Source: a virus (taxonomy: Duplodnaviria > Caudoviricetes). From it: a DNA stretch of 64,000 nt. The stretch is from IMG/VR virus record IMGVR_UViG_2806310659_000001, positions 13,142-77,141 of that record; one strand, 5' to 3'. The stretch's first letter is position 1. Each line of letters opens with the position of its first letter. Shown piece by piece: positions 23,105 through 48,000 of the stretch. Both the position numbers and the translations under genes were made by a program. The notes under the pieces were generated by a model. The model was not told the origin of the DNA and made no database searches. It saw only the letters and a program-made list of their open reading frames with translations.

Positions 23105-23111
23105 CCTATGC

Positions 23112-23694: not shown

Positions 23695-23718
23695 CCACAA
23701 CCACGGAGGGGTAACACC

Positions 23719-23835
23719 ATGTCACAGCAAGCCACCCGGTTACGTCGCAAGTACACGCGGGCACAGATACGGACGGATCTTAATGCGCGGGAGTATGCGC
23801 GGGAGGTTTACTACTACCAGAGGAAGGCGGTTTAG
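23719..23835 (+). CDS. small basic protein (38 aa, below ORF-track cutoff)
   Basis: CCACGGAGGGG RBS; MSQQATRLRRKYTRAQIRTDLNAREYAREVYYYQRKAV. Confidence 0.55.
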   Translation: MSQQATRLRRKYTRAQIRTDLNAREYAREVYYYQRKAV

Positions 23836-23838
23836 CCC

Positions 23839-24069
23839 ATGGACCCGAATGCAACGCTCGAAATGATCCGCGAACAACTCAAGGCCTTCTATGCGGAGCG
23901 CGATGCGGAGTTCGACGCTATCGCACTGGCCGACATGGTGGCAGCGCTAGATGACTGGTTGTCGCGCGGCGGTTTCCTGCCGGACGCATGGAAGGGTCAA
24001 ACCTACTCGCGGCCAGATATCGTTAACGGTACCGGCTGGACACGCGGTGCGCGCTTTAGGCAGGTCTGA
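23839..24069 (+). CDS. hypothetical protein
   Basis: MDPNATL..LDDWLSRGGFLPDAW pattern common in actinophage small genes. Confidence 0.7.
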   Translation: MDPNATLEMIREQLKAFYAERDAEFDAIALADMVAALDDWLSRGGFLPDAWKGQTYSRPDIVNGTGWTRGARFRQV

Positions 24070-24070
24070 C

Positions 24071-24202
24071 ATGTCCTACCTCGCCCGCTACTCAGTAGCC
24101 ATCTTCGCCATTGCGTCGGCATTGTTCGGCCTCGGCATGGGTGCGAGCGGCATAGACCAGCTCGCGCAGTATCAACACCAGCATCCCGAAATATCAATCT
24201 GA
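24071..24202 (+). CDS. small membrane peptide
   Basis: One hydrophobic helix; tight gene packing. Confidence 0.45.
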   Translation: MSYLARYSVAIFAIASALFGLGMGASGIDQLAQYQHQHPEISI

Positions 24203-24234
24203 GCACTACCCCCACGGAATAGGGAGTTAGAACC

Positions 24235-24552
24235 ATGGCACGGCAGCACACTACCGGCAGTATTTGCGTTGACTGCCTCATGTTGACGGCTAACGGTGAA
24301 ATGCCGCCCGACCTTACCGAGTCGCAGTGTCACAATTACGTACGAGCAATCGAGTCGCATCCCAACTACGGGGCAGAGATGACGCTAGGTCACCTGCACG
24401 ATAGCCCTGACGCTCAGTGCTGGCACGCTGGCGAAGAATGCGGGGATGACTGCGAGTGTGAGCGGACTACGTTTAGCTCACGCGAGTGCGACGTGTGCGG
24501 CTCAGACTTGGCCGGCGAACGCCACGACGTGACATTTTGGTGGGACGAATGA
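24235..24552 (+). CDS. Cys-rich hypothetical protein
   Basis: CVDC and FSSRECDVCGSDLAGERH; strong RBS. Confidence 0.7.
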   Translation: MARQHTTGSICVDCLMLTANGEMPPDLTESQCHNYVRAIESHPNYGAEMTLGHLHDSPDAQCWHAGEECGDDCECERTTFSSRECDVCGSDLAGERHDVTFWWDE

Positions 24553-24767
24553 CCGCCATGTCCGAGCTAGCCACAGAGCTAGACCTTAACTGGATCGAGA
24601 CCCATGATGGTTACGAACACATCAGCGGTGAATACGTCATGCTGTGGTGGAACAGTAACCGGGAGAATGTGAGCCTTTACCGCATGGTGAGGGGTGAGCT
24701 GCGATTGCTTGACAGCGGCAGCGTGTCGGACGCGCTCGCGGTGGTGCGATGGGAGTCGGGACGGTGA
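24549..24767 (+). CDS. hypothetical protein
   Basis: ATGA overlap. Confidence 0.55.
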   Translation: MTAMSELATELDLNWIETHDGYEHISGEYVMLWWNSNRENVSLYRMVRGELRLLDSGSVSDALAVVRWESGR

Positions 24768-25025
24768 TTGAACGCGGTAGGACGGTTCATGTTCGTAACA
24801 CGCGGCCGAGCGGGTGGGTCGGCACTGTCCGGTCACTGACCGGGACGACGTACACGATTGTCGCGCCGAATGGCGCGCGGAAGTTTGTCGACTACACGAG
24901 GCAGGAGGTTACAGCGCTGTGACGAAGTTTCTGGTGTCGCTGATGATTGGGTGCGTCATTGCCATCGCGGCATTGCCAAGTGATCAAGAGCTGGCCAGTG
25001 TGCCGGCCTATTCGGAGGAGCAACC

Positions 25026-25439
25026 ATGACCGATCAGACGCTTAACGACCAGATGGAATTCGGCCGTGTTATCCAAGTCCACGCGGACGGTACCGTTACC
25101 CACCCGAAGGGCGTTTACGGCCCCGAAGTTGTCTATGTAGAGCTGGACAGTGACGGGCAGATGATCGGCAGTGACAGCCGCGACGGAACCGATGTGCTCG
25201 TGGACAGGTGGGACGGCTGGGAGTACATGCAGGGCTATACCGGACAGTATCTGAGTACTAGCCGAAGTTTCATCATGCATGCGTCCGAATATATCGGCGG
25301 ACGAATGGAGCGCGACATACTGGCGCGGCCGGGCTATTACGTCGCGGTGGTCGTTGACGGCCTGCCGCCTACGGAGGAGTTCAACCCTAACGAGGATTAC
25401 AACGTAGGCTGGGCTGTCGCATATCAGCGTATGCCTTGA
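25026..25439 (+). CDS. hypothetical protein
   Basis: GGAGGAG RBS; 137 aa. Confidence 0.75.
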   Translation: MTDQTLNDQMEFGRVIQVHADGTVTHPKGVYGPEVVYVELDSDGQMIGSDSRDGTDVLVDRWDGWEYMQGYTGQYLSTSRSFIMHASEYIGGRMERDILARPGYYVAVVVDGLPPTEEFNPNEDYNVGWAVAYQRMP

Positions 25440-25464
25440 CACATACGCACCTATCTACTACCAT
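25436..25464 (+). promoter_or_regulatory. SigA-type promoter
   Basis: TTGACA-17 nt-TACCAT; shares TTGACACATAC with the promoter at 23075. Confidence 0.7.
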
Positions 25465-25498
25465 CAGAGATACCAACACCACGGAAGGGTGACAGACA

Positions 25499-25870
25499 AT
25501 GAGTGAACGAGACCGCGAAATACTCGCAAAGCACGTTGAGGGCACGGCCAACACCATTCGCCAGTATGTAGACATACTGGAAGGCGAATCATCGCCAGCC
25601 GGCCGAGAGGCTATTTACGCGCTGGCGCACGATGAGGGCGTAGACCCCGACGACTTCGACTACACGGAGTCATTGCAGGAATGGCCGCTCGAAATCGTTG
25701 ACGAGCGCGGCCGAGAGTTCGCCGTGGTCCTGTCAACAGGCGGTCCGCATGTCGAGGTAGTGGCGGACGGTCTGTCTAGCCCGCGCCTTGAGGGCTATTG
25801 GGGCGGTGAGCGGGTTACCCGTTACGGCGACTACCTGAGCACGTTTCTCGACTACTTTATTGAGCGCTAG
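25499..25870 (+). CDS. acidic hypothetical protein
   Basis: PLEI..VVLSTGGP..EGYWGG pattern of phage early proteins; RBS present. Confidence 0.75.
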   Translation: MSERDREILAKHVEGTANTIRQYVDILEGESSPAGREAIYALAHDEGVDPDDFDYTESLQEWPLEIVDERGREFAVVLSTGGPHVEVVADGLSSPRLEGYWGGERVTRYGDYLSTFLDYFIER

Positions 25871-25883
25871 GGAGGTTTTAACG

Positions 25884-26315
25884 ATGAATATCAGAGAGTA
25901 CGTCGAAGCTAAGGGCTGGCACGTCGAGGTATTAGAAGATCACGGCTTACAGGATCGCGACCCGTTCAACTACGTTGACGCTCCGCCGGCGAAATGGCAG
26001 CACTACAGCTACCGGGTGCGTGTCCACAACGGCAACGGTCAGCATTTCGACAGCCCATGGGCGCAAGGCACCGCGATTACGGCCAGCCCTACCGAGCAGG
26101 TCGCCGAGATTGTCGATAGCCTACTTAGCGACGTATGGTCGTACCAGCAGGCGCGCGACTTTGAAGATTGGGCGCTGGACTTCGGATACGACACAGACTC
26201 GCGCAAGGCCGAGAAGCTGTACCGGCAGATAGCGGCAATGGAACCGGGCGTCGTGGCACTGTTTGGCGATCAAGACGAGTTTGAACGTGTCGCTACCGAA
26301 GTAGAGAGGCTGTGA
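25884..26315 (+). CDS. hypothetical protein
   Basis: GGGAGG RBS; FEDWALDFGYDTDSRKAEKLY motif. Confidence 0.75.
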   Translation: MNIREYVEAKGWHVEVLEDHGLQDRDPFNYVDAPPAKWQHYSYRVRVHNGNGQHFDSPWAQGTAITASPTEQVAEIVDSLLSDVWSYQQARDFEDWALDFGYDTDSRKAEKLYRQIAAMEPGVVALFGDQDEFERVATEVERL

Positions 26316-26962
26316 CCATGCACGAACTTGACTCGCAAACGATCGACACACCGGCCGGCGAATACCGCGTGACGTGGTATCACGACGAGGACGCCAACCA
26401 GCCAGAGGACGAAGGGTTTAACCTCTTGGTCCACGGCTGGGAACGTTACGGCGCGGATAGCCGGATTGACATTGAATACGGCGGAGGGCATCTAGCCGGC
26501 GAGGTTATGTCGGTACTCCTCACCAGCGGAACGAATCGCGAGGACTCGTGGCCGTGGGAGCTGCGTAGTGGCGCGGCATTAGTCCGCTATCTACGGCTGA
26601 AGGACCGCAAGGGTGTCACGCTGGTTGACCTCGACTATCGTCCCGTAGAGCCGTCTAGCGACCGCTGGCAGCGTGTCTACGGCGTCGCGTGGTCGCCGGA
26701 TGACGCGACCGATCCTGACGAGTACGTGAAAAACCGTCTAGCCGAATGGCGTGCATGGGCCGAGGGCGATTGCTTCGGGTGGGTAGTGACCGACCCGACC
26801 GGTAGGGAGATTGAGTATGGGTCCGTTTGGGGTTATTACGGCTTTTGGGACGGCGGTCGCGAATGGTCGCTGGAAGATGCCAAGGGCGAAGCCATAGCGG
26901 ACGCCGAAAGCAGGATCGAGCAGGCTAACCGTGTTGGTGCCGGGATAGTGGGGTTAGTGTGA
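26312..26962 (+). CDS. hypothetical protein
   Basis: 216 aa; WAEGDCFGWVV..SVWGYYG motif. Confidence 0.75.
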   Translation: MTMHELDSQTIDTPAGEYRVTWYHDEDANQPEDEGFNLLVHGWERYGADSRIDIEYGGGHLAGEVMSVLLTSGTNREDSWPWELRSGAALVRYLRLKDRKGVTLVDLDYRPVEPSSDRWQRVYGVAWSPDDATDPDEYVKNRLAEWRAWAEGDCFGWVVTDPTGREIEYGSVWGYYGFWDGGREWSLEDAKGEAIADAESRIEQANRVGAGIVGLV

Positions 26963-27276
26963 TGGCCCACGAGTTTAAGCCCTACGCCGATAACCCTGAC
27001 TACTGCGTAGCGGAACTGCCAGATAGTGGTGACACGTGCAATCGGCCGCGCGAAGATCACACCGTGCACTGGACCGTAACAGATTTCAAGGGCAATAGCG
27101 TCCAGTTTGACGGTGGGCGCGACTTACACATCGCCCTGGACATAGCCTATGGTCAATACCGAGTGTCGCTTTACGGCAACGCTGAGCATTGGGAAATTGT
27201 TAATAGTGCCGGTGACCGATACCCGCGCGAGTCTGAATATGACTGGCAGGTTAATGAGTACGGGTATGAGCGATGA
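26959..27276 (+). CDS. hypothetical protein
   Basis: Overlap-coupled ORF, 105 aa. Confidence 0.6.
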   Translation: MMAHEFKPYADNPDYCVAELPDSGDTCNRPREDHTVHWTVTDFKGNSVQFDGGRDLHIALDIAYGQYRVSLYGNAEHWEIVNSAGDRYPRESEYDWQVNEYGYER

Positions 27277-27461
27277 CTGAGCTATGGGAGATTCTGTTTC
27301 CGGGGCACAGTTGTCACGTCGGGGCTGTCTATTTGCCATGCGGCGCGCCAGATGGCGATGTAATCCGCGCGGCCAAAGATCGATACGGCCGAAGGGCTCT
27401 TGCCTACCGCCGTAGCGGTGACGAGACATGGACGACGATTGAGCACGAGAGGATTTACTAG
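27273..27461 (+). CDS. hypothetical protein
   Basis: ATGA overlap. Confidence 0.5.
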   Translation: MTELWEILFPGHSCHVGAVYLPCGAPDGDVIRAAKDRYGRRALAYRRSGDETWTTIEHERIY

Positions 27462-27462
27462 C

Positions 27463-27726
27463 ATGGTCAAGATCTACAAGACTCTAACCCCGCGCCAGTA
27501 TGTGCGCGAGTATGGCGCACGAGTGCCCATCGGAATCCAGACAGTGAAGGTGCCCGTTTTCAATGTACGTCTAGCCAAGCATGGCAGAACGCACAAGCAG
27601 GACGGCGACCGCGATGGCGATTACACCGTATGCGGGCTGCCGATTACTCCTGACGCGGTAGCGGGCAGGGAAGTTACGTGCCAGGGATGCATCCGCGGGC
27701 TGCGCGCTTGGATCGATCAGCCATGA
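27463..27726 (+). CDS. hypothetical protein with C-terminal His/Cys motif
   Basis: GAGGA RBS; TH..TVCG..VTCQGC. Confidence 0.6.
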   Translation: MVKIYKTLTPRQYVREYGARVPIGIQTVKVPVFNVRLAKHGRTHKQDGDRDGDYTVCGLPITPDAVAGREVTCQGCIRGLRAWIDQP

Positions 27727-27950
27727 CCGTAGACCTTAAAGCCATCCGCACTACCGCCGGCCTCACCCCGACAGAGATGGCCGCGCAATTGGGGCTCAGC
27801 CCTCGCAGCGGGCGCATAACCGTCTCGTTGATGGAGGGCCGGGACGATTGGCTACTGTCGTCGCTGTCCGCCTACTTCAAGGCGTGCGGGGCGGTAGCGG
27901 AGTTGGTTGTGACGGTAGAAGGTGACGAGTTTAGGTTTACCGTCGCGTAG
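27723..27950 (+). CDS. XRE-family helix-turn-helix protein
   Basis: LKAIRTTAGLTPTEMAAQLG..VSLME..D..LSSLSAY..ACG. Confidence 0.75.
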   Translation: MTVDLKAIRTTAGLTPTEMAAQLGLSPRSGRITVSLMEGRDDWLLSSLSAYFKACGAVAELVVTVEGDEFRFTVA

Positions 27951-27986
27951 GGACGGTTTGATTACCCACGGAAGGGAGTAAGTAAC

Positions 27987-28220
27987 ATGGGAAACCCGGC
28001 AATGTACAGCGGTATGCTGGCCGAACTGCTAGACAACGTGCTAGGCGAATTTGAGGAGACAACGGCCAACCTGGGAGAAGAAGCGTCAATCGAGGATTAC
28101 GCGGCCGATGTTGTCAGCATGCTAAACCGTTACTACCTAGAACCGGACCCGCTCGCGGACCGGAATGAGAGCTACAAACCACCAACGTTCATTGTGGACG
28201 TGATGGGTGACGACGCATGA
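27987..28220 (+). CDS. acidic hypothetical protein
   Basis: CCACGGAAGGGAG RBS; 77 aa, Asp/Glu-rich. Confidence 0.65.
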   Translation: MGNPAMYSGMLAELLDNVLGEFEETTANLGEEASIEDYAADVVSMLNRYYLEPDPLADRNESYKPPTFIVDVMGDDA

Positions 28221-28456
28221 CCACCGGAATCGTCCTCCTGGCGACGTTCTCGCCAATCTGGATACAACTATTGGTCAATGGCGCAAAGTGGCCCAGCGGG
28301 CGAATCACGGTCGTTAAGCGGCGCGGGGAGATTTGGATAGGGCGCGTGGGATTCTTCTATCACAAGCTGTACGGCGTCGAGACTCCGCGATTCTCGCTAT
28401 ACGGTCCATCGCCGAAGTTCAAACGGGAGCTTGAACGGATTAGGATGGGGCGATGA
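28217..28456 (+). CDS. hypothetical protein
   Basis: ATGA overlap. Confidence 0.5.
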   Translation: MTTGIVLLATFSPIWIQLLVNGAKWPSGRITVVKRRGEIWIGRVGFFYHKLYGVETPRFSLYGPSPKFKRELERIRMGR

Positions 28457-28698
28457 GTATGCGTTCCGTAGGCCGTAAGGCTATGTTCTGCGTACTCGCG
28501 GCGCTAGTGTTCCTGTCGGCGCCCGACGCTAAGGCTGACCCGAGCTGTCACCCTGGCGCGTGGAACAACACGTGCGGGACATGGCCCGGGCAATTACAGC
28601 CAACATGGGAAGTACCGCCCTACGGCGGATGGGGCTACGGGCCGCGGTCACCGATCGCGTGCAATCCGATTGACCTCACCTGCCAGCCGTACACATGA
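28453..28698 (+). CDS. putative secreted Cys-containing protein
   Basis: Signal peptide ending APDAKA-DP; four Cys in the mature part. Confidence 0.6.
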   Translation: MSMRSVGRKAMFCVLAALVFLSAPDAKADPSCHPGAWNNTCGTWPGQLQPTWEVPPYGGWGYGPRSPIACNPIDLTCQPYT

Positions 28699-29157
28699 TC
28701 TGGCTTATCGTCGGCCTCGTCGGGGTCGGGCTGATCATCCTTGGCCATGTTGCCGAAGGGTGGCAGGTTGAACCTGTGGACGACGACCAGCCGGAACCGG
28801 ACGAGACGCCAACCGAAGTGCTCGACTGGAATGGCGACCCGATAGTGGACTTGGATCTGTAAGGAGGGTATGAAAGTGAGTCACGTTACCTGGACGGAGG
28901 ACACCCCGAGGGGGGTTGTGCAGGTTACATGGAACGGTGTCACATACATGGTGGACGGGGTAGTTGTGCCGCCAGAACGCTACACTGTGGCCATTGCGAC
29001 GGGGAATTGGTGATGAGGATGCGCAGCGGCCGGCGCAGAAGGGGCAGCGCGGGCCAGGGGGCGAAGGGCGTGCTGGCCGGCATAGCGGTTGTGCTAGCCC
29101 TGTCAGCGGGTACACATGCCTGTGACGAGCAGAGAGCGATACACCAGGAGGTCCGTA

Positions 29158-29379
29158 GTGTCGAACGATAGTGTCTACGTAGCGCACATCGTAGCTATTA
29201 ACGGCATTGGCTACATGAGTGCCCACCGCTCATTCCAAACGGCAGAGCAGGCACTCGTAGACAAGGCGATTGATTGGGGGTTCAATAGCCACGGCGAACG
29301 ACTTGAGGTTGTAGACGACCTGGACGACAACCCCTACGTCCGCAGTTACGGCGTCAGCCATCTTCCGATCGAAGCGTAG
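29158..29379 (+). CDS. hypothetical protein
   Basis: AGGAGG RBS before GTG. Confidence 0.6.
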   Translation: MSNDSVYVAHIVAINGIGYMSAHRSFQTAEQALVDKAIDWGFNSHGERLEVVDDLDDNPYVRSYGVSHLPIEA

Positions 29380-30554
29380 GGCTACATCATGCAGGTTGAC
29401 TATTGGCCGTACGCGGTGGCGTCGCTATTCGTCATACTGCTGATCGGAATGAAGAAGTTCGGATAGGAGGCACTATGTTGCACTACCTGCTGGTGATGGT
29501 CCGCCGGGGACTGTTTCAACAGCCCCGCAAGCATGGCTAAACGTCGCGCTGTACGGAGATGACACCGCGCGAGGAGCCACTATCGGCACCCCACAAGCAG
29601 ACGGGGCTGTCCGCCGGCCAGTCGGGCACGGCGTCAACCAGGCTGCGCAGATCGGCCAGCGTCCAGTTCTCGCGGACAACCTCGTGAATGTCGCGGGTGG
29701 TGTCAGCCATTTGATCCCTTCAACTTCTTGATCGGTAGCCAGTCGCTCACACAACACGACACCGCGATAGCGCCGGGGTAGGCGGCTGCGGTCTCGTGGG
29801 CGAGCACTTCGGAAGCGACGCGCACGACGCGGTTCAGGTCGGGGTATTGCACGCCGTACCAGGTTCGGACGGTCGGGAGAATCTGCACGTCAAAGTCCTT
29901 CACAATCGCCAGACCTGCCCGCACGAGCAGTGAACCAGATAGAGCCACATCGTCTTGTCGAGGTGTTGGCGGTGTCGACACACGCTGCGGTGCCACCACA
30001 TGAGGAGTTCGATCATTCGTCATCCTCGAAGTAATGGGTGCCACGACCGCAACCGCAATCACCATTGTCAGCGATTGGGAAGTTGCACTCGGTGCAGTAG
30101 AAGGGGCTCATTCGGCCCACGCTGCGTCGTGAACGTTGTCAACGATCAGACAGAACCATTCCGGATCTGTTGCACGGCCTGCGACGACAATCCACACCGA
30201 GTCGTCCCGGCAGTAGTCGTCGACCGTAACCGGCAGGCCGAGCAGTGAGCGATAGACACTATCGCGCGGACCCATCGTCAAGGGGCCTCGGATTAGGTCA
30301 GATGATGCACTCGCCGGCGTGTTCACATCGCCACCATTCGCATTTGTCGTCGTTGCAAATGTTGATCGGCTTGGTGTCGATCAATTCGAGAAGGTCAGCG
30401 TCGTCAACGTCCACGCGGATCACCTTCCAGATAGAAACCGTGCTCTGCCATGTGCTCAACCAGGCGGCCCTCTGCCGCGGCGCGGTTGATATCCTCCTGG
30501 CCCCACCGGGGTCCAAGGAACACATCCCTACCGGGGATTAGGGCGGGGCCGAGG

Positions 30555-30659
30555 TCATTCACCGCAGAACCAATCCCATGCCGACTCGGCTAAATCGCCC
30601 AACGATGATTCGCAAAACCAATTCCATGATGATTCGGCCAGCCCCACGCGGTCACTCAC
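30555..30659 (-). CDS. 34-aa peptide with internal duplication
   Basis: GTGA overlap; LAESSWNWFCE / LAESAWDWFCG. Confidence 0.45.
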   Translation of the reverse strand: MSDRVGLAESSWNWFCESSLGDLAESAWDWFCGE

Positions 30660-30980
30660 GATCCCACCAACACTCGCCGGGCGATACGCTCCACATTGAA
30701 GTTGGACACGTTGCCGGCCAGGGTCGAGGTGGGAACGTCCACGTCGCTTTCGGTCCACTGGCCGTTCTTGGCGCGCTTACCGCGACGCTCAGTGCGAACG
30801 GTCTGCTTGTTGGCCAGGAGCGACCCGAGAATCTGTTGGTCGATGAGGTTGGCTTTCGCAACCGGCTTGGGGGTCATCGGCGGCGCTTCCGGTAGGGGCA
30901 TTCGGGGAGTTTCGTCTTGTTGCCGAACACATCTTCGGCCGGCATGTAGCCGATCGTCTTGTTGCAATGCGGACACTTGT

Positions 30981-31244
30981 TCATGCGAAATCGTCCTCCT
31001 CGTCTTCGCCCTCTTCTTCGGACATGAACTGGTGGAACATTTCCAGATAGGTTGGCGACAAGGTGAAAGCGCGAGCCCACTCGATCAGCTCAAGCGCCTT
31101 GCCCATCTCGATATCTTCGCCGTCGCCCCCGTAGCTGAAGTCGTCCTTATGGATCACCCCATCGGCGTCCATGTATTCGACAACCCTGATGACGTTGAGG
31201 ATCACCGCCGACTTTGGGACAAGTTTCGTAAGGTCATCTCTCAT
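30981..31244 (-). CDS. hypothetical protein with acidic tail
   Basis: ATGA overlap with HNH stop. Confidence 0.55.
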   Translation of the reverse strand: MRDDLTKLVPKSAVILNVIRVVEYMDADGVIHKDDFSYGGDGEDIEMGKALELIEWARAFTLSPTYLEMFHQFMSEEEGEDEEDDFA

Positions 31245-31660
31245 TGGAACCAGTCCTTGCTCGTGCGGGGTTGCTGCTTGTCGTTGCCGGCGCCGCGGCT
31301 GATGTTGCACCGCAGGTGAGTGGCTTCCAGGTTGCGCGGATCGGTTAGAAGAGGCGACCCGGGCGGGAGCTTGTCGACGGGAATCTTGTGGTCGGCGGAG
31401 GCGGACCAGGGGTTCGGCTTGCGGCCGTGCGACTTGTCGCAGTCAGGTCCGCAAATGGTCGGAATCTCGTGGGCGGTGTCGACGGTGTATGCGGAGGTGT
31501 CCACGCGCCGGCAGATCGGGCGGAGCTTCTTGTCGATGGCCTGACCACAGCGGGCGCAAATCGAAGAACCGTTGATGACTATTCGGCGCGAGCGGAGGTA
31601 ATCCTTCTCGCTGACGCCGCTATACTTTCCGCCGGCCTTGCGTCTGAGGTTTCCGGGCAA
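31241..31660 (-). CDS. HNH endonuclease (terminase-associated type)
   Basis: CARCG..SADHKIP..NLEATHLRCNISRG; GAAAGAGG RBS before TTG; near the right genome end. Confidence 0.85.
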   Translation of the reverse strand: MPGNLRRKAGGKYSGVSEKDYLRSRRIVINGSSICARCGQAIDKKLRPICRRVDTSAYTVDTAHEIPTICGPDCDKSHGRKPNPWSASADHKIPVDKLPPGSPLLTDPRNLEATHLRCNISRGAGNDKQQPRTSKDWFQ

Positions 31661-34232: not shown

Positions 34233-34711
34233 GCGTATTCCCCGCAGCCGTTGTGATGGGTGAAGTAGCGCCAGTGGACCCAGCCCTTCGGGCACCAGAA
34301 GCCCCACTCGCGGAGCTTGGGTCCGGTAATGATCAGGGTCCAGACCGGCTTTTCGCGGCCGGCGACATCGGGCAGGAGTTGTATCCGGTGAGTCCAATCG
34401 GCGGACCGATAGGCAATAGACCAGCGACTGCGCCACCGCAGACCGGTCACGCCAGAAGGGGCGGCCGGGTCGTCTACTGGAACGTGCTCCAGATACTCGC
34501 CCTTCAGGATCCAACTGAAGAACCACCAAGGGTGGTCATGCAACGCCCGGTCCTCGTCGGAGCGGAGGAACTTGTGAAGGTAAATTTTCAGGAGGCGGTT
34601 ATGCGGGAGCACGAACCAGCGCAGCAGGTAAGGATCGTCTGCCTCGCCAATTACATCATGCGGCTCGAACCGCAACCACTTCCGAAACCAATGATGGTTT
34701 TCGTTTGCCAC
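34229..34711 (-). CDS. cupin-like protein
   Basis: YLHKFLRSDEDRALHDHPW..GEYLE..HRI..WTL. Confidence 0.7.
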   Translation of the reverse strand: MANENHHWFRKWLRFEPHDVIGEADDPYLLRWFVLPHNRLLKIYLHKFLRSDEDRALHDHPWWFFSWILKGEYLEHVPVDDPAAPSGVTGLRWRSRWSIAYRSADWTHRIQLLPDVAGREKPVWTLIITGPKLREWGFWCPKGWVHWRYFTHHNGCGEYA

Positions 34712-34732
34712 AAGTTCCCCTTTGTGGACGGA

Positions 34733-34960
34733 TTAAGAGAAGATCGCTTTCCAGAGGCGCTTACCGATCGGATCGGCCCACCACGGGAGCGAGTTGAGGA
34801 GGTGCAATGCAACCCCTGCAATGACCACCCGGGTCAGGATTGGGTGGGTCAATAGCCATTCGTCGACAACGACGGAAAGTAGTTGGTCCTCTTCGCACGA
34901 GAACTCGTAGGCGATGATGCCCGCGGCCATGATTGCCCAGGCCTGCTTGCCGGTGATCAC
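34733..34960 (-). CDS. small membrane protein (start approximate)
   Basis: AW..AAGIIAYE..LLS..HP..ALHLLN pattern; two hydrophobic segments. Confidence 0.55.
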   Translation of the reverse strand: MITGKQAWAIMAAGIIAYEFSCEEDQLLSVVVDEWLLTHPILTRVVIAGVALHLLNSLPWWADPIGKRLWKAIFS

Positions 34961-35154
34961 GAGACCAGCCAAGGGCGCGGGGCTCCGAAGATCAGCTCCC
35001 AAAACTCAGGTTCCGGGAGGGCCGTGTCGTCCTTGCGGGAAGCCATGCATACGCGACGGTCCCTGGTCTTGTCGGGCCACTGCCGGCGCCAGTGCGAGCC
35101 CCCCATCCACGATGGGCGTCCAGCTCCGCAGTCGGGGCAGGTTTCGGCGAACAT
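34957..35154 (-). CDS. hypothetical protein
   Basis: AGGGAG RBS before ATG; CPDCG. Confidence 0.5.
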   Translation of the reverse strand: MFAETCPDCGAGRPSWMGGSHWRRQWPDKTRDRRVCMASRKDDTALPEPEFWELIFGAPRPWLVS

Positions 35155-35431
35155 CGGTACTCCCTGGATCGGGGGTTGCAAGTTGAGGCCGGCCCGTGGC
35201 GCGCGAACAGGGGCCGGCCGGGGCGCTTCGACCCGCGGGGAGCGCCCAGCCTGGAAGTTGGAAGGAGCCTTTTGGTAACCCGGTGACTCACGCAGGGTGG
35301 CGGCCACTCGACAGCCTCTCTGGGGCTGTTCGCCTGCACTCATCCGGGACCGCGGAGTTAAAGGGATAACCCACCACTAGCCGCGGGGTTCGGCGTTTTG
35401 TCAGGCGGAGCCGTTCCAAATCAACCGCCCG

Positions 35432-35513
35432 TGGAGATGTTCGGTGCTGCCCCGAAGTCTTGCCTGGTGCCGCGTGCGGCTTTCGTCAGACAATCGAACC
35501 TGGTCGCATCCCC
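35432..35513 (-). ncRNA. minimal tmRNA: tRNA-like domain only, no mRNA-like domain
   Basis: GGGGATG/CATCTCC acceptor stem with G3.U70 and A73; stemless D-loop CGACCAGGTTCGA; helix TTGTCTG/CAGGCAA; GAC connector; T arm TTCGG-GGCAGCA-CCGAA. Confidence 0.85.
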
Positions 35514-35518
35514 TAGTT

Positions 35519-36296
35519 TGGAACCGGGCTGAGAATACACCCGTCCACAGTGACCTTTACCGGATTATTGGTTCCCGGCTTTTCCACGTCATTCCTGAAC
35601 GTAGTCACCACGCCCGGTCGGTTACGCCGACCACTCGTTACACCGAAAGCTACTCCGCGACGTTTGTTTCACACTGGATTCGCGGGTCCAGCGCTGCACT
35701 ACTTGTCTACGAACCACCGTCGCCTTGCGGGCTCGTGATGGCCCTGGTTCCGTAACGGCCAGGGATTAGAGGCGCTTTTGCTCCTCGGCGGGGGAAGAAC
35801 TTTGGCTTGTTTCTGTTCTCAAAACAGGAAATGGTGAAATATAAGCAATTTCGTTCTAACTAGAGACGTGCTTCCCCATGAAGGTCCGCACCCTTTTGAG
35901 GTACAGAATGCTTCACGCCTCTCGTGCTTCAGGCTGGCGACCTGTTTCGCACTCTACTCAGCCGTTCCCGAGCCGTCGCCCGTTACTAAGCGTTTTCATG
36001 GAACCCGCCCTTGCCCGCCAAGGCTTGGACTGAGACCCCCTCCGCACCACAAGGAGCTTGACCGATAGCCGTTTCTTCCCGCACGTACGGGTTGGTGGTC
36101 CCACTGGTTCACAGCCCTGGACCCTGGCGTATCTCGCCCCCTGGCAGCCCCCGAAGGAACTGCTCAAGGATTGGATTGCATGGGGTACCCTCTCGGGCGG
36201 CAAGGTTGTCAGCCTCGCCTTTCAGCATCTTGCGATGCCTTATCCGCCATGCCGGAAATGTGCCCGTTCAGTCGGTGGGCTAACCGATGCAATCCT
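35519..36296 (-). ncRNA. large structured non-coding RNA, GOLLD-like
   Basis: ~780 nt with no credible ORF; many stems closed by GNRA/UUCG loops on the minus strand; long-range helix GGATTGCAT/ATGCAATCC; upstream -10; adjacent to a tRNA-like gene. Confidence 0.7.
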
Positions 36297-36297
36297 C

Positions 36298-36330
36298 ACT
36301 ATATGAACCGAAATCCTCGAATAGTGAACA
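36298..36330 (-). promoter_or_regulatory. putative promoter of the ncRNA block
   Basis: -10 TATAGT at 36303-36298; weak -35 TTCACT with 19-nt spacer. Confidence 0.45.
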
Positions 36331-36492
36331 TTGCATACGTTTACAGCTCGTTTGAGGCCTGTCCCTGCCTCACCCCGTGAGCCACGCGGGGGCCGTCCGT
36401 TCTGGACACCCTTCAGGACAATCAGGTGCTCTCTCGGTCACGGCAACCGCCACGTTTTCTCTGCGCAACGGCGAAACGTGGAAACCGGGTCT

Positions 36493-36861
36493 TTAGGTCT
36501 GCATCAGTTCGGTGAGCGATTCCCGCTCGCGCCTGACGCGCTCATACTCTTGCTCAACATCCCTCGGCAGTGTTGGCCCCTGCGCGATGACGGGACGGCC
36601 CGACCAGACGAGGTTGTCTTTGTGGGGGTCCTTGCCGGCGCGGAACTTGACACGGTATCCGCGGCACATGGGATGGCCGTAGTAGGCGCGGGCCACAAGG
36701 TCGTGGACCATGCAGGTGGATTTACCGATGTCGACCTGGAGTGAGCCATTGGCAGCACGGCGCAGTTTCTTGAACCGGCGCCGGCGCTCGTCCCATATCC
36801 GGCCGTCTGGCGTTGCCCGGTAGCCGGCATAGCCGGGGATGGCGGCTAACTGCTCATCCAT
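36493..36861 (-). CDS. NUMOD4/HNH-like protein (degenerate)
   Basis: IPGYAGYRATPDGRI..VHDLVARAYYG..DNLVW. Confidence 0.65.
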   Translation of the reverse strand: MDEQLAAIPGYAGYRATPDGRIWDERRRRFKKLRRAANGSLQVDIGKSTCMVHDLVARAYYGHPMCRGYRVKFRAGKDPHKDNLVWSGRPVIAQGPTLPRDVEQEYERVRRERESLTELMQT

Positions 36862-36923
36862 ATTCGATTTTGGGTAGCAAGTCTCTACCTTCTAGTTAAG
36901 CATGCTTGAGCATTCTCACGGTT

Positions 36924-39040: not shown

Positions 39041-39754
39041 TCATGCTGCACTCTCCTGAAGGGCGGTTACATCTGCGAGGGTCAGACCGGTTTCGTATTT
39101 CCATTGGCGGTACTCGCGCAACTCCGCCGCCATCTTTCGTCGGTCCATCGTTACATGACACTTCCTACACATCGGCATGTAGAACTCGGGATAGAGCGAA
39201 TACCGCATTAGTGAGCCAGAGCCCGACCCCTTACCAGGCCCCAATATCTCGGCCGGATCAGTCCCGTCATAAGCCCAGTCCTTAGCGTTTTCCCCGCACT
39301 CAATGCACCGGTAGCGGCTTGCAGGTCCCCATAATGTCCGAACCCTGACGTGCGCGGCGGTGAAGTCGCAAGGACTGGCCAGCGTATTGCGAATGGGCGC
39401 GTCAACGGAAAGCGACGTATCTCCGCGTGCGCGAGACCAATGCAATCGGCAATATCCGTGCGCCTTATGCTTTCGATCGCACCCCTCGATCCGGCATCCG
39501 CGATCAGGATCAAAGATCCTAAGCGGGCCGTCGATATCACACCCCTGGCGGAAGCGTTCGTAGTGGCCACGGCAGTAGCCCCTGACCGTGGACAGGCGGT
39601 CACACCCCTTGGCTGTGCACAGCTCGGGATAGTCGGGAACGCGATGTCGCTGGTTCATATCAGCTCCGCGGCGCGCCCGCTGGTAATGAGCACTGCAATA
39701 GCCGAGCGATCGGACCTTGCGGTCGCACCAGTCCACTTTACAGATACTTGTCAC
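39041..39754 (-). CDS. HNH-type endonuclease with three Cys/His repeats
   Basis: Three CxxxxCDRxxxxxGYCxxH repeats; AHVRV..WGPAS..CIECG..WAYD..PMCRKCH. Confidence 0.75.
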   Translation of the reverse strand: MTSICKVDWCDRKVRSLGYCSAHYQRARRGADMNQRHRVPDYPELCTAKGCDRLSTVRGYCRGHYERFRQGCDIDGPLRIFDPDRGCRIEGCDRKHKAHGYCRLHWSRARGDTSLSVDAPIRNTLASPCDFTAAHVRVRTLWGPASRYRCIECGENAKDWAYDGTDPAEILGPGKGSGSGSLMRYSLYPEFYMPMCRKCHVTMDRRKMAAELREYRQWKYETGLTLADVTALQESAA

Positions 39755-41073
39755 GCGACCGATTCCATGTCCAGCTCGCCCCTGTCGAGCAGCTTCGTTT
39801 CGTGTTCGAGGAATACTTGTGACTTGGCCTTTAGCAAGACCGGAACCAGGCCCTCCTGACGAATTACCACTCCCTCGTCGACCGTCTTGGGGTCGGATAG
39901 GGGAAGCACATCAGGATTGACCTCACCGTACAACTCGGCATAACTCCGGTCCATGAACGAGTCGACAATGTCGTCCGTGGTGTCACCGGTGGTGTCGTAT
40001 TCCGGATCGAAGTCATGGATGAAACGGAACAATTCCGGTGTCCACTTCAGCCCGCGCTCCTGGCAAAACTGCTTAACGCCATCCCACGAGAGGTCGCTTA
40101 GGTGACCCTGTCGGTTGATGTGAGCGACGCGATAAACGTATAGTTCCGCTTCGTTCCGAGCCAAGTGATACGTGTAACCCCTTTGAAGAGGAGCACCGTC
40201 AGGCGTCCAGCCGATAAGCTCGCCATAGACAATGAATCCTTCCGGGATTAGGTTGGCAACCCTCTTGCCGTATTCGGTCCAGAGGTCGAATTTGTAGAAA
40301 TGCTCCTGGTTCGGGTTGTTCGGGTCCTTGATAACCTTTCGTGAGCCGAAAACCACGTCGTACTCCCACTCGGGGATGTTCACGCCGAGGCGCTTGAGCA
40401 GCTTCTCATACCACTTCAACTGGCGAAGGACCGGAACCCTCCCGCCACGCCAGGATGTCCCGTGGAGCTTCTGCGTGATGACCACTTCCCGGCCGGCGCG
40501 CAAGACGTGCCTGGAACGGAAGTAACTGTCAGTTTCGAGGTGCTCGGGAAAGACTTTCTTGTCCACGCGCTTAAACGCCCGCTCCACCTTCGACCTGGCG
40601 GGCTGGCCGGCCTTGCGGGGCAGCTCGTACTTCTTGCAGATCTCGTGGTCGCCGATCTTGTCGAACAGCACCACCGGGTGGCTTACGTCGGCCAGCTCGG
40701 CACGCAGCTTGTCGATGTCCAGGCCGGTGTAGGCCAGGGACTCCAGCGGCATGAGGAGTGCGTTGGAGCGGTGCCCGCGGAGTTTCAGCGCCTTGATGCG
40801 GCGGTTGTCCTCCAGGTAACCCGTCTCGCCCTCGTCCTTGTTCAGGTCGGCATGGCGGAACAGGTTGTTCTGGTGGGCGTAGTCGTCGCTCAGTTGCGTT
40901 TCCGCGGTGAACAGCACGCGGAGTTCCCCGGCCTCAATCCCCCGCTGTGTGAGGGCCTGGTGACCGAGAATGGGGATGCCGACAAGGTTGTCCAGCCCGG
41001 GCAGGTCCACCGGGGCGGGAACACGGACGATGGTGGCCGCGTAGTTGACGTTGGCCGGCTGGTCGAATTTCAT
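39751..41073 (-). CDS. RNA ligase (DRB0094/Rnl2-like)
   Basis: Motif I TQKLHGT, VYGELIG, EGVVIR, LKAKS. Confidence 0.85.
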   Translation of the reverse strand: MKFDQPANVNYAATIVRVPAPVDLPGLDNLVGIPILGHQALTQRGIEAGELRVLFTAETQLSDDYAHQNNLFRHADLNKDEGETGYLEDNRRIKALKLRGHRSNALLMPLESLAYTGLDIDKLRAELADVSHPVVLFDKIGDHEICKKYELPRKAGQPARSKVERAFKRVDKKVFPEHLETDSYFRSRHVLRAGREVVITQKLHGTSWRGGRVPVLRQLKWYEKLLKRLGVNIPEWEYDVVFGSRKVIKDPNNPNQEHFYKFDLWTEYGKRVANLIPEGFIVYGELIGWTPDGAPLQRGYTYHLARNEAELYVYRVAHINRQGHLSDLSWDGVKQFCQERGLKWTPELFRFIHDFDPEYDTTGDTTDDIVDSFMDRSYAELYGEVNPDVLPLSDPKTVDEGVVIRQEGLVPVLLKAKSQVFLEHETKLLDRGELDMESVA

Positions 41074-44233: not shown

Positions 44234-45667
44234 TCAGAGCAGGTTTTCGTTTATCTTTGGCTCCGATATTTGGGCCAGGAACCACGCCGTAGGAACGCTT
44301 CCGCCCTGTCCGCCACGGTGCCCGTCGACTTTCGTCAAGACCCCTCGCTTGACGAGCTTGTCGAGCTGCCGCTGCGCCTTCTTGCACTGCGCATCAGTGG
44401 GGCGGGGGGTGTCGTACAACTGCTTGGCAGCCTCCTTGGCGGTCAGCCCGTCCGGGCCGGCGCCGTTGACCGCTTTCGTGAAGTCGAACTTCACCACCTC
44501 CATCCGCCCCTCCTCGGGGAAGTAGTGGAGATGCCAGGGACCCACCTCGTTGGCGGGCTGCTTGACGTGGTGGAACCTCACCACCAGATCACCCGGGTCG
44601 CCGGTCAACTGAATGACCGAGCCGGCCCCAGAGGTCAGCCACGTCGAGCCGAACACGTCGTTGATCCCGACCGGTCCGTTCTGCGGGTTGGCCTTCCTGT
44701 TGTGGTGCAGCTCGCAGATCTGCACGCCGCGTGCCAGCAGTGCTTGTCTGGCCCGGTTGTAGGCCGCGGCCGTGGCGTCCTCGGACAGCCCCACCACCGC
44801 GTCCTTGAGCGAGTCCACGTACACCGTGCCGGCGCCAGCCTCCAGCGCCATCCTTGCCAGCAGGGATGGGTCCACTGCCAGGTCGGAGATGGGCGGACCG
44901 GGGCGGAACAGTAGCCGGCCCGTAACTCCTGCCATCTCCTCGGCATCGAACTGCCGTCTCATCGAGCGGCGGATCTGTCGTGGGCGGTCCATCGCCAGGT
45001 ACAGGATGGGTCTCTCGGAGCAGGCGATAGGCAGACCGAGGACCGTGCTGTCGAGCCCGAGCTGTCCGCGGACGAGCATCCCGGCGAGGGTGGTCTTACC
45101 CAGCCCCATACCGCCGGCGATCATCAGTGCCTCGCCCTCGGCCCAGAGGATGTCATCGCCGTCGCCCCACACGATCACGCTGCGATCGTCGGCACCGAAC
45201 ATCCACTCCGCGCCGTCAACGGGAGGGAAGTTTCCCCAGACATCGATTGCTGGAGCGGAATCGCCTTCCACTGGCCGCTGGGGACCTCCCCCGATAGATG
45301 ACACCGGCGAGGGCGTAGCGGCGCGCTCAGGGACCATGCGGGCGCCGACCTTCGCATCGGCCCCGGCGAAGCCCGAACGAATGGTGGCCTCGATCTCATG
45401 GTCGTCCAGGCCGGCATTGCGGGCGGCTAGTGTGAGAGTGTCCTCGACGGTATGTTTGTCGATGGCCCCGGCGTTAATCAGGCCCCCCATATTGAACGCT
45501 GCTACGTTCAGGGTGTGATTGCGCACCCCTTCCGGGGCCACCTCCACATTGCGCGCCTCTAACTGGAGGGCTGCCGCGGCGTAGGCGTTGTTCGGGGCGA
45601 CCGGGTTGGCGATCTTCCTGGGCTCGGGCTTGGGCTGTTCAACGCGCTGAAGGAAGCCGGTAGTCAA
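44234..45667 (-). CDS. primase C-terminal domain plus RepA-like (AAA_25) helicase
   Basis: EGVRNHTLN..A..AGL..EIEATIRSG PriCT-like domain; Walker A GGMGLGKT; VYVDS; LHHNRK; FGS. Confidence 0.85.
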   Translation of the reverse strand: MTTGFLQRVEQPKPEPRKIANPVAPNNAYAAAALQLEARNVEVAPEGVRNHTLNVAAFNMGGLINAGAIDKHTVEDTLTLAARNAGLDDHEIEATIRSGFAGADAKVGARMVPERAATPSPVSSIGGGPQRPVEGDSAPAIDVWGNFPPVDGAEWMFGADDRSVIVWGDGDDILWAEGEALMIAGGMGLGKTTLAGMLVRGQLGLDSTVLGLPIACSERPILYLAMDRPRQIRRSMRRQFDAEEMAGVTGRLLFRPGPPISDLAVDPSLLARMALEAGAGTVYVDSLKDAVVGLSEDATAAAYNRARQALLARGVQICELHHNRKANPQNGPVGINDVFGSTWLTSGAGSVIQLTGDPGDLVVRFHHVKQPANEVGPWHLHYFPEEGRMEVVKFDFTKAVNGAGPDGLTAKEAAKQLYDTPRPTDAQCKKAQRQLDKLVKRGVLTKVDGHRGGQGGSVPTAWFLAQISEPKINENLL

Positions 45668-47156
45668 GTCCCTCCTCCAGTACGCGCTGCACGTCCTCGA
45701 ATGTCTGCCAGCTCAGGAACTGGCCGTCCTGCCAGACGGGCTGGAGCAGGCTTCGTCGTTCCGCAGACTCGCCGGCCTCCTGAACCAGGACGAGGCCCCC
45801 GCCAAAGGCATTCGCCCGGCGTCCTACCGCGAGCCGGCCGGTAGCACTCGTCTTGGTGCCGTCATCGGTGATCGGGTCCTTCTTGAGGTTCACGCCCTCG
45901 CCGTCGACCTCCGCCCAGGTGGCTTTCATCGCCGAACCGAACGTGTCGCGGGTCTGGTACTGGTAGCTGAACGAGCCCACGCCGAACACCACGTTGGTCG
46001 AGGCGTAGCACAGTTGCCGCATCCTCTCGGTGATCGAGCGGGCGCGGTCGAGCGTGATCGAGTCGCCGTAGATGGCGCCGACGTGCGAGTCCAGTTCGAT
46101 GAAGCCTCGGGCGTTCTTGTGCCCGCCGAAGGTGTTGTAGAGCAGGTTCAGCACGCCCCACCACTCGTGGGACATGTATGGCGCCTGCGGGTTACCACAG
46201 AGGATCTTCTCCGGGTCGCCCGAGTCGGGGCGGATCACCAGCTTGCCCTCACGTGTGAGGATCTTGTTCTTCAGCGCCGGCAGGTAGGTGGCCAGCACAC
46301 GCCACAGGTCGAACGTGTCGGACACGATCGAGACCGTCCCCTTGGGGTACAGGTCCAGCAGACGGTTGATCGTCTCCAGCTCCCCCACGGTGGCGATTCC
46401 GGTGCACATGACCGAGTGCTCGGTGGCCGGGACCGACTGGGCGGAGTAGAACCCGCCGTAGTAGCGGTCGATCCAGTCCAGGGAGACCAGGGAGTCGGTG
46501 CCGAAGAATGACAGCAGGTGGCCGGCGCCCGACGCCGCGGCGGACTCGTGCGAAGACATCCCCCGGTAGGAGAAGTCGTGGCACTGGTAGTTCACGGCCG
46601 AAGGGGCGGCGCCGGTCAGCTTGGCCGCCTCCTCCAGGATCTTGCGATACTCACGGGCGATCGTCGCCGAGGTGGACGCCTGCCAGATGCCGGCCGACAG
46701 CCCGGTCTCGACGAAGTTTGTCAGCCAGAAGAACCGCGGGTCGGTGTTCTCCACCGTGAAGGACGGGATGCCGATCGGAACCGGCGTGCCCTCGGGGATC
46801 GAGCAGAACCGCAGGGGCAGGTACCCCAGCTTCCATAGCTCCCGAACGTGCTCCGAACCGATCGACTCGGCGGCCGGGATACCGAGCACCTGCGCGATGC
46901 GCCCCTCGTAGAGGTCGCACACCTCGTCCACATCCGACTCGAAGAACGGCTCCCACTCCTCCATCAGGTACTTGCGGAGGTAGGCCTGCAATCCGAAGTG
47001 GACCACGTGGTTGACGCCGGGTATGCGCGACTTGCGGTTGGTGTAGTTGGAGTAGACGCGGGTGACGTTGCCGCTCAGTTGGTATTGCCGAAGATGGTCC
47101 AGCTTGTAGGCGTCAGTGCGAAACAGGGGGGCAACTGGCTCGTAGAGCGTGTTCAC
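45639..47156 (-). CDS. NAMPT-like protein (probable NARP1 Namat)
   Basis: TDAYKLDH, HDFSYRG, SVPATEHSV, VSIVSDTFD, VIRPDSGDP, IYGDSI, VFGVGS. Confidence 0.9.
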   Translation of the reverse strand: MNTLYEPVAPLFRTDAYKLDHLRQYQLSGNVTRVYSNYTNRKSRIPGVNHVVHFGLQAYLRKYLMEEWEPFFESDVDEVCDLYEGRIAQVLGIPAAESIGSEHVRELWKLGYLPLRFCSIPEGTPVPIGIPSFTVENTDPRFFWLTNFVETGLSAGIWQASTSATIAREYRKILEEAAKLTGAAPSAVNYQCHDFSYRGMSSHESAAASGAGHLLSFFGTDSLVSLDWIDRYYGGFYSAQSVPATEHSVMCTGIATVGELETINRLLDLYPKGTVSIVSDTFDLWRVLATYLPALKNKILTREGKLVIRPDSGDPEKILCGNPQAPYMSHEWWGVLNLLYNTFGGHKNARGFIELDSHVGAIYGDSITLDRARSITERMRQLCYASTNVVFGVGSFSYQYQTRDTFGSAMKATWAEVDGEGVNLKKDPITDDGTKTSATGRLAVGRRANAFGGGLVLVQEAGESAERRSLLQPVWQDGQFLSWQTFEDVQRVLEEGLDYRLPSAR

Positions 47157-48000
47157 TGAAGTCCTTCACGTGTTGAAGCATGTACGTTTCGGTCGGCACG
47201 ATCACCGTGGCCACGCCCACCCTGTTGTGCCCGGGGTGGGAGTCGGTGGTGTAGATGTGCCGGTAGTGCTCGCGCAGGTCATAGGCGCGACCGGAAAAGA
47301 TCCCGTGCGTCACCCATAGGCCGAGCTGGTCGCGATGCAGGCCGGTCTCTTTTGCCAGGCCCATGAACGTCCCGCCGCCGTCGCAGATGTCGTCGACCAC
47401 CAGGTAGCGACCGTGCCGCGGGAGGTGGTCTTTCATCTCGATGCCGAGGATCTTCCCGGTATCGAACTCGCGGACCTTCTCCGCGCGGTAGAAATCGAGC
47501 CCCAGCTCGTGGGCCGCCGTGTAGGCGCGCTGAGCGGCACCCTTGTCAGGTGAGATCACACCGTCGTACCGCTCCCGGTGATCGGCGTCCTGTAGCGCTC
47601 GTAGCAGCAGGGGGAACGGATCTAGCTGCGTCAGGTTTCGCAGGTAGCGACCAATCATCGGCGAGTGTGCATCGATGCCGATAACCTGCTGCGGGTTCAT
47701 GGAGTTGATCAGCTCCGCATACACTCTGGCGCCTTCCGGCTCGCCGCGGTCAGCCCGGGCGGCCGGCAAGTAGGGCAGCATCAGAACGAACGGCATCTGC
47801 CGCTGGTGGGCGACGTTGGCCCACAGTGCCGCCTTGACGAGATCATCGGCACTTGCCCCGCGGACATCGGCCACCCACACTGCCGCGGCTCCCACGCTCG
47901 GCAGGTCGCGCAGATGGTGCTCGCCGCCAGGGAAGGTGAACGAATCGCCCACACCTTTGAGGTAGCCGTTGGGGGTGTGTAAGCGGAGGTGGACGGTCAT
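47113..48000 (-). CDS. ribose-phosphate pyrophosphokinase-like protein (probable NARP1 Adps)
   Basis: FPGGE, PYLPAARADR, DAHS, SPDKGA, VVDDICDGGGTF, THGIFS. Confidence 0.9.
   Translation of the reverse strand: MTVHLRLHTPNGYLKGVGDSFTFPGGEHHLRDLPSVGAAAVWVADVRGASADDLVKAALWANVAHQRQMPFVLMLPYLPAARADRGEPEGARVYAELINSMNPQQVIGIDAHSPMIGRYLRNLTQLDPFPLLLRALQDADHRERYDGVISPDKGAAQRAYTAAHELGLDFYRAEKVREFDTGKILGIEMKDHLPRHGRYLVVDDICDGGGTFMGLAKETGLHRDQLGLWVTHGIFSGRAYDLREHYRHIYTTDSHPGHNRVGVATVIVPTETYMLQHVKDFSEHALRASCPPVSH

Follow-up and report, generated by a model that had tools for sequence, protein, structure and literature searches.

The 64,000-nucleotide (nt) stretch of viral DNA analysed here, hereafter the window (positions 13,142 to 77,141 of the IMG/VR record IMGVR_UViG_2806310659_000001), carries on its minus strand a gene for a large non-coding RNA (35525-36261) that almost certainly belongs to the GOLLD family. 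Considering the evidence as a whole, we regard it as very probably a complete and structurally intact GOLLD gene of a Mycobacterium prophage of ~77 kilobases (kb). It is a new and atypical member of a known family, one that reportedly goes back to Weinberg et al. in 2009. Unless stated otherwise, the features described below lie on the minus strand.

We searched the whole window with the Rfam 15 covariance models at their gathering thresholds. The sole match was to GOLLD (RF02032) at 35526-35923, with a score of 215.6 bits (gathering score 150; expectation value, E = 1.3e-59) and coverage of model positions 1-416 of 416 without truncation. This score is higher than those of the GOLLD RNAs of prophi86-1 (194.2 bits) and Nanosmite (192.4 bits), and an Rfam scan of the 5.0-Mb host genome found one GOLLD only. 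RF02032 models the conserved 3' half of the RNA alone; the 5' half was analysed separately. The initial annotation, made from the sequence alone, had described a GOLLD-like RNA at this position and suggested a comparison with Rfam. We agree with that identification because the score exceeds the gathering threshold over the whole model and because homology to other GOLLDs extends through the 5' half. ROOL (which we take to be Rfam RF03087) was not matched anywhere in the window at its gathering score, and the interval 34700-36900 had no ROOL match even with E values up to 1 allowed. At the latter setting, the same interval contained besides GOLLD only a weak match to PtaRNA1 on the plus strand (35144-35228; 24 bits, gathering score 47, E = 0.067), which is probably due to chance.

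The gene lies within the longest gap of the window between open reading frames (ORFs) that have a coding-type pattern of GC content at third codon positions, 35003-36492 (1,490 nt). The ORFs inside this gap lack a codon-position GC signal, in keeping with an earlier description of the region as a gap without a credible ORF. Conservation with 12 relatives begins at approximately 36261 and the final base pair is C35543-G35525; together with the Rfam match, these limits define a conserved core of ~737 nt (35525-36261).

A blastn search of 50,697 phage records returned 32 matching records. The genomes concerned, of 79-84 kb, are all Mycobacterium phages or prophages of M. abscessus; identity is 68-72%, and the best matches span window positions 36261 to 35527. 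From an nhmmer search, we obtained the same mycobacterial set and also Streptococcus-type GOLLDs, which are collinear with the window from ~36209 to 35527. Relatives were collected by motif scans and sorted with nhmmer, giving 12 distinct mycobacterial-type sequences. L031, L002, L067, L066, L003, L064, L072, L056, L055 and L058 are full or nearly full, L063 is partial, L299 has lost its 5' end at a contig end, and in L118 (Mycobacterium alsense) the 3' part alone aligns; the near-identical L002 copies L069, L061, L070 and L073 were left out as redundant. The scans with 16-nt motifs hit more than 250 loci, nearly all by chance (some hundreds are expected per 16-mer on a rough estimate), and the only new homologues that they yielded were L118 and L299. 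A further pattern scan had zero matches in genome or metagenome contigs, and a survey for GOLLD found none in 60 other genomes of the same genus or in 40 genomes of other genera. The window copy is at most 75% identical to any relative in the 5' domain and at most 82% in the 3' domain, and it sits on its own long branch of ~0.18 substitutions per site; overall, it is 64-75% identical to the other GOLLDs of the mycobacterial clade. In deposited phage records such as those of Aziz, Estes, LilhomieP, Rey and prophi86-1, the GOLLD region is annotated as 'hypothetical protein', as transfer RNA (tRNA) or not at all; the records do not mark GOLLD as such, and some of these coding-sequence calls probably lie over non-coding GOLLD RNA.

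Covariation and fold of the RNA

Both halves of the RNA were aligned with relatives, as the initial annotation had recommended. Alignment A2 (13 sequences, with pairs predicted by RNAalifold) covers the 5' domain and the first 3' hairpin (window 36262-35860), and alignment A3 (13 sequences) covers the 3' domain (35803-35520). The 5' domain proper (35924-36261) falls outside the Rfam model, is supported by A2 and is collinear with Streptococcus-type GOLLD; the conserved 3' domain (35525-35790) is supported by both Rfam and A3. Changes on both sides of a pair were found in 43 of the 89 consensus pairs of A2, and compensatory changes in 41 of the 72 of A3. Standard pairs filled 94.7% of cells in A2, compared to 37-45% in controls slid by 1-3 columns, and 97.6% of cells in A3, compared to 32-42%; these paired percentages are inflated relative to the slid controls because the consensus structures came from the same alignments as the counted pairs. 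None of 500 shuffles matched the observed covariation values of A2 and none of 500 was as good for A3, although the 13 aligned sequences are related and, for both reasons, the controls overstate the significance somewhat. With these reservations, both halves covary beyond shuffled and slid controls.

The window copy itself retains 88 of the 89 consensus pairs in A2 and 67 of the 72 in A3, and three of the five pairs that it misses in A3 fall in the terminal hairpin or in an alignment gap. It differs from its nearest relative, L031, at 42 pairs, 38 of which are still standard pairs, 19 of them through a change on both sides. The retained pairs and compensatory changes show that selection acts on the base-paired structure of this GOLLD.

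The RNA from 36303 to 35520 has a predicted folding energy of -315.2 kcal/mol (z = -2.89), and none of 20 shuffles was as stable. Each of the hairpins listed in the initial annotation can be read on the minus strand at its position, and those capped by GNRA or UUCG loops are real, as is the multibranch 5' junction; both covary in relatives. Within that junction, the GNRA-capped hairpin GCATC-GCAA-GATGC (36238-36225, within the helix at 36224-36239) has compensatory changes in five of six pairs. It is followed by a hairpin with a conserved GUGACAA-type loop (36199-36219), paired in 100% of alignment cells, and by the GAGA tetraloop hairpin GCCC-GAGA-GGGT (36187-36198), which has GCAA or GUGA loops in relatives. 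The UUCG-capped hairpin GCAGTTCC-TTCG-GGGGCTGC (36144-36163) has four pairs with compensatory change. Further along, the hairpin TCTGTACC(T)-CAAAA-GGGTGCGGA (35907-35885) forms part of the first hairpin of the Rfam model (35862-35923; model positions 1-61), which is supported by covariation and has an invariant CAAAA loop (35894-35898) and a GGGGAAG bulge (35871-35877). In the 3' domain, the hairpin GGUCGG-CGUAA-CCGACC (35616-35632) corresponds to Rfam model positions 307-323 and to helix 10 of A3, and the terminal hairpin CGGG-UGUAUUCUCAG-CCCG (35525-35543), with its conserved loop UGUAUUCUCAG, corresponds to model positions 401-415. The tail GUUCC (35524-35520) lies just past this terminal hairpin. 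It had been proposed to form a pseudoknot with GGAACC, a pairing that we consider unsupported because the tail is not conserved and the relatives have no counterpart.

In the family, the helix that closes the three-hairpin junction pairs GCAUGG (36247-36252) with CCAUGC (36178-36183); it is present in all 12 sequences that have letters at these columns and is supported by covariation, since L063 has GCAUGA/UCAUGC, altered on both sides. In the A2 consensus, the adjacent UCC (36175-36173) pairs with GGA (36043-36041). The initial annotation had instead closed the junction with a 9-bp helix formed by an upstream strand specific to the window, GGAUUGCAU (36287-36295), which appears in the single-sequence minimum-energy fold. 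The complementarity of 36295-36287 to 36181-36173 is indeed perfect, but as a conserved closure of the junction the 9-bp helix failed, being found in none of 11 relatives. The strand 36181-36173 is shared, and for that reason the 9-bp helix excludes both GCAUGG/CCAUGC and UCC/GGA.

It is unlikely, in our view, that the 9-bp helix is a real closing helix or leader switch that replaces the family helix in a copy that no longer has an upstream tRNA whose processing would fix the 5' end. Its complement is perfect, and when the 80 nt upstream were shuffled, a 9-bp complement arose in only 6 of 500 cases; in the 11 relatives, by comparison, the best upstream complement is 4-6 nt and is equalled by 206-500 of 500 shuffles. 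The helix belongs to the minimum-energy fold, and a candidate -10 hexamer, TATAGT, may lie just upstream (36303-36298). The strand 36295-36287 precedes the conserved start of the RNA, at a place where relatives have a tRNA gene or unrelated sequence; those with a tRNA gene directly upstream suggest that the window copy would have to define its 5' end by other means. Against this stand the absence of the helix from the relatives, its incompatibility with two family pairings that are both perfect in the window, and a probability of ~0.1 of finding such a match by chance (a rough estimate for any 9-mer of the 780-nt RNA against 40 upstream positions). We therefore retain GCAUGG/CCAUGC as the junction-closing helix.

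Beyond the reservations on the controls given above, two points weigh against the reading of an intact gene with the family fold. The 9-bp helix is predicted to be thermodynamically preferred in this sequence, and a transcript that includes 36287-36295 would have two family helices disrupted. In addition, a scan of 34900-36900 found no minus-strand consensus promoter or intrinsic terminator flanking the gene, and the single promoter-like site in this interval falls inside the RNA.

A prophage locus without tRNA genes

The host is a Mycobacterium, whose genome has a 16S pattern in common with M. intermedium and with a metagenome-assembled genome of a Mycobacterium sp., and the GOLLD gene is carried by a prophage. 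The contig encodes tape measure, portal, terminase, capsid and minor tail proteins, as well as a large serine recombinase (62551-63897), and its GC content is ~61% throughout compared to 67.2% for the host genome. The window reaches the contig end, and the contig may represent an entire phage genome instead of integrated DNA flanked by host sequence. Its capsid (52% identity), DnaQ-like exonuclease (55%) and HNH endonuclease (36%) have their nearest counterparts in M. smegmatis phages of 71-76 kb, among them 244, Kostya and CicholasNage. The prophage has in common with phage 244 (Kostyavirus) the gene order ClpP-like protease, gp105 homologue, HNH endonuclease, variable slot, gp111 homologue and DnaQ-like exonuclease, where the variable slot holds gp107, tRNA-Gln and tRNA-Gly in 244 and GOLLD in the window. 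The Rfam model found no GOLLD in the phage 244 genome, and a search of viral contigs with the DnaQ-like protein found no related loci. The HNH gene directly upstream of GOLLD (36493-36861; phrog_959, E = 1.8e-12) encodes a protein with 35.6% identity to gp106 of 244, which precedes the two tRNA genes of that phage; it has no similarity to the GOLLD-adjacent HNH genes of prophi86-1 or Nanosmite.

The initial annotation had drawn attention to the occurrence of such RNAs near tRNA genes, which does not apply to this copy: there are no tRNA genes in the window and none on the whole 77,141-nt contig. The host genome has 51 tRNA and transfer-messenger RNA (tmRNA) genes, with at most 5 per contig and none on C44, the contig that contains the window. 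In contrast, at least one tRNA gene is present in 12 of the 13 other mycobacterial-type GOLLD loci (range 1-21). The ten longer loci have 6-21 each and the 1,485-nt L299 locus has one, while the tRNA-less locus is a 2.4-kb fragment. Among the non-mycobacterial GOLLD loci, seven of eight have a tRNA gene, and L009 has none within its 8 kb. A tRNA-less context is unusual for the mycobacterial clade, but not for the GOLLD family as a whole. In our literature search, we found no report of a mycobacterial GOLLD without tRNAs, though such a case may already be known.

Behra 2019 (PMC6582537) and PMC9569102 place mycobacterial GOLLDs in tRNA clusters, describe detection by Northern blot in M. aubagnense and note a pairing with HNH genes. 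The window copy resembles these array GOLLDs (M. aubagnense, M. abscessus M24, Bongo, Rey and prophi86-1) in its clade, its helices and its nearby HNH gene. It differs in that theirs lie among 6-21 tRNA genes per locus whereas the window has none in 77 kb, and in that its backbone follows the gene order of phage 244 and not that of the 79-84 kb type. With the GOLLD family in general, it shares the full 3' domain, a length of 700-800 nt and carriage by a prophage, and its 5' domain is of the type found in Streptococcus and mycobacteriophage GOLLDs; it differs in having neither a neighbouring tRNA nor one in the linker between the two domains. Among the relatives, L002, L066 and L056 have phage-encoded tmRNA genes ~1.1-1.5 kb upstream of GOLLD, and the prophi86-1 array includes genes for an RF-1-like protein and an RtcB-like ligase.

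The linker (35809-35861) is variable, differing in both length and content between relatives. ARAGORN called a tRNA in the linker of 7 of 12 relatives, and a tRNA-like remnant could be recognised by eye in 4 more; in the window, it called none there. The window linker contains the hairpin CUGU-UUUGAGA-ACAG (35813-35827), which falls opposite the anticodon arm when aligned with relatives that have an embedded tRNA. In L058, the corresponding CUGU-AUUGAGA-ACAG lies within an ARAGORN-called tRNA-Ser(UGA), and the linker hairpin of the window is a probable tRNA relic. Rfam models gave no tRNA-like match at E up to 1 within 34700-36900, and alignment of the tRNA-Gln and tRNA-Gly of 244 to the flanks and linker revealed no relic (20 to 187 of 200 shuffles were as good). 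Downstream of GOLLD, the non-coding flank (35003-35524, ~520 nt) has no coding signal, a GC content of 64-69% that is nearer to the host than to the phage, and no more predicted structure than expected (z = +0.42); it occurs only once in the genome and matches no sequence among phages.

These features raise the alternative that the window copy is a decaying remnant, in which GOLLD came in together with a tRNA array that has since lost its tRNAs, leaving a functionless RNA that is drifting towards loss. The 77-kb contig without any tRNA gene, the linker reduced to an anticodon-arm-like hairpin and the featureless non-coding stretch after the gene would all fit such a remnant. The helices, however, are intact despite a branch of the length given above, over which drift would have broken them. 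The proportion of consensus pairs retained is equal to or above that in phage copies, most of the pairs that differ from L031 still pair, many by a change on both sides, and a palindromic loop (described below) has survived a double change from GGCC to CGCG. Moreover, the Rfam score exceeds those of the prophi86-1 and Nanosmite GOLLDs, which come from complete phage or prophage genome records. We consider it very unlikely that the copy is a remnant, and favour an intact gene that lacks tRNA neighbours. The possibility that the region is instead a new large RNA class unrelated to GOLLD, as the initial annotation had allowed, or is protein-coding is negligible: although RF02032 spans the 3' half only and several ORFs of 40-130 codons overlap the region, the Rfam match covers the full model at very high significance, the 5' half aligns with covariation to the GOLLDs of mycobacteriophages and Streptococcus, and the overlapping ORFs have no codon-position GC pattern.

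Possible cage assembly and function

Structures determined by cryo-electron microscopy (cryo-EM) are available for two other GOLLDs. According to Kretsch 2025 (PMC12286853) and a review (PMC12990946), the env-38 GOLLD forms a 14-mer cage (PDB 9MEE) and the S. agalactiae GOLLD a 12-mer cage (9L0R). In both cages, the copies are joined through A-minor contacts and kissing loops, some of which are symmetric, with palindromes that covary (B8 and L21a in env-38, L21-L21'' in S. agalactiae). The window RNA resembles them in its two-domain layout with a variable linker, its invariant A-rich CAAAA loop and a self-complementary tetranucleotide. It has one hairpin where the Rfam consensus has two, as does the S. 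agalactiae RNA, which is reported to lack P21b.

The self-complementary tetranucleotide, CGCG (35681-35684), lies in the loop of a hairpin at 35674-35691 and occupies columns 130-133 of A3. At these columns, ten sequences have GGCC, the window has CGCG, and L118 and L299 have AGCU and UGCA, respectively, so that the tetranucleotide is palindromic in all 13; the outer pair is GC in ten sequences and CG, AU and UA in one each, and the inner pair is GC in all 13. Because positions three apart in one loop cannot pair within a chain, this pattern points to pairing between copies, and the loop fits the symmetric kissing contact of the published cages. A second long-range pairing may involve CUUCCCC (35791-35797), the complement of the GGGGAAG bulge. 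Mycobacterial relatives have only C-to-U changes in this strand, which retain G-U pairs, and Streptococcus-type GOLLDs have GGCGAUG/CAUCGCC, which amounts to two compensatory changes relative to GGGGAAG/CUUCCCC.

By analogy with the two published structures, we think it likely that the window RNA forms a homo-oligomeric cage. The gene would be transcribed from the prophage and the transcript would fold into separate 5' and 3' domains with a floppy linker between them, as in the two cryo-EM GOLLDs. Twelve to 14 copies would then assemble without protein into a closed cage, in which kissing loops such as CGCG would join two half-shells. Such a cage may serve the phage during lytic growth, and its genomic context alone hints at a link with tRNA or translation supply. 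ROOL is likewise a large phage-encoded RNA that forms a cage and is often near tRNAs.

This proposal should be read with caution. The four palindrome variants represent just three independent changes, and the equation of the CGCG loop with the published L21/L21a, and of the 7-nt pairing with a published bridge, is tentative. Assembly and copy number are projected from the two GOLLDs of known structure, and the timing and role of the window RNA are likewise inferred, with a link to tRNA or translation that is drawn from a single kind of evidence, gene neighbourhood. The idea of a tRNA-related role arose because the GOLLDs of relatives lie in tRNA arrays and because the window copy takes the place that tRNA genes have in phage 244, in a phage with its own genes for an RNA ligase and a polynucleotide kinase (described below). 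A function tied to tRNA or translation in infection is possible but, on balance, doubtful.

More specifically, a tRNA-free GOLLD in the tRNA slot of a phage with the gene order of 244 might itself supply what phage tRNA genes do, namely protection of the translation apparatus against tRNA-targeting host defences; we consider this quite unlikely. If it were true, anticodon nucleases or tRNA might be caught by GOLLD as a multivalent decoy or a cage, alongside the RNA ligase and polynucleotide kinase and not by way of spare tRNAs, and the 9-bp leader helix would be an adaptation that defines or gates the 5' end in place of tRNA processing.

Current ideas on what the GOLLD structure is for invoke the flanking or linker tRNAs, which, covalently linked to the RNA, would be stored or exposed by the cage. 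The window copy may be viewed as a natural control for these ideas, since its lineage has lost the tRNAs but has kept helices, loops and inter-copy contacts by compensatory change. As this copy has no flanking or embedded tRNAs, GOLLD function cannot require a cis-linked tRNA, and the comparison argues for a core function without such a need. At ~737 nt and without an embedded tRNA, it would also provide a compact construct for assembly and knockout work. Finally, PMC9569102 suggests the combination of HNH and GOLLD as a marker of mycobacterial tRNA arrays; the window locus indicates that 'HNH plus GOLLD' is unreliable for this purpose.

Other features of the phage

Several other genes of the window deserve mention. 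The arm that contains GOLLD also encodes an RNA ligase (39751-41073; phrog_968, PF09414) and a polynucleotide kinase (52300-53211; phrog_505), which make up a T4-like tRNA repair pair in a phage without tRNA genes. At least three HNH genes are found in this early arm (36493-36861, 39041-39754 and 50268-50771), two of which share phrog_959. An ORF of 552 amino acids with coding-type composition (21104-22762) lies just upstream of the terminase gene; it matched no PHROG family and had no tblastn match in the 50,697 phage records.

Two neighbouring genes at 45639-48078 encode a ribose-phosphate pyrophosphokinase-like protein (phrog_619) and a nicotinamide phosphoribosyltransferase (phrog_448; PF04095), and the closest DNA matches of this gene pair are from Gordonia phages. 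The pair presumably resembles the two-gene phage pathways for reconstitution of nicotinamide adenine dinucleotide (NAD+) that counter NAD-depleting defences. Between the two minus-strand arms, the interval 23000-31500 contains small plus-strand ORFs and several gaps of 400-860 nt.

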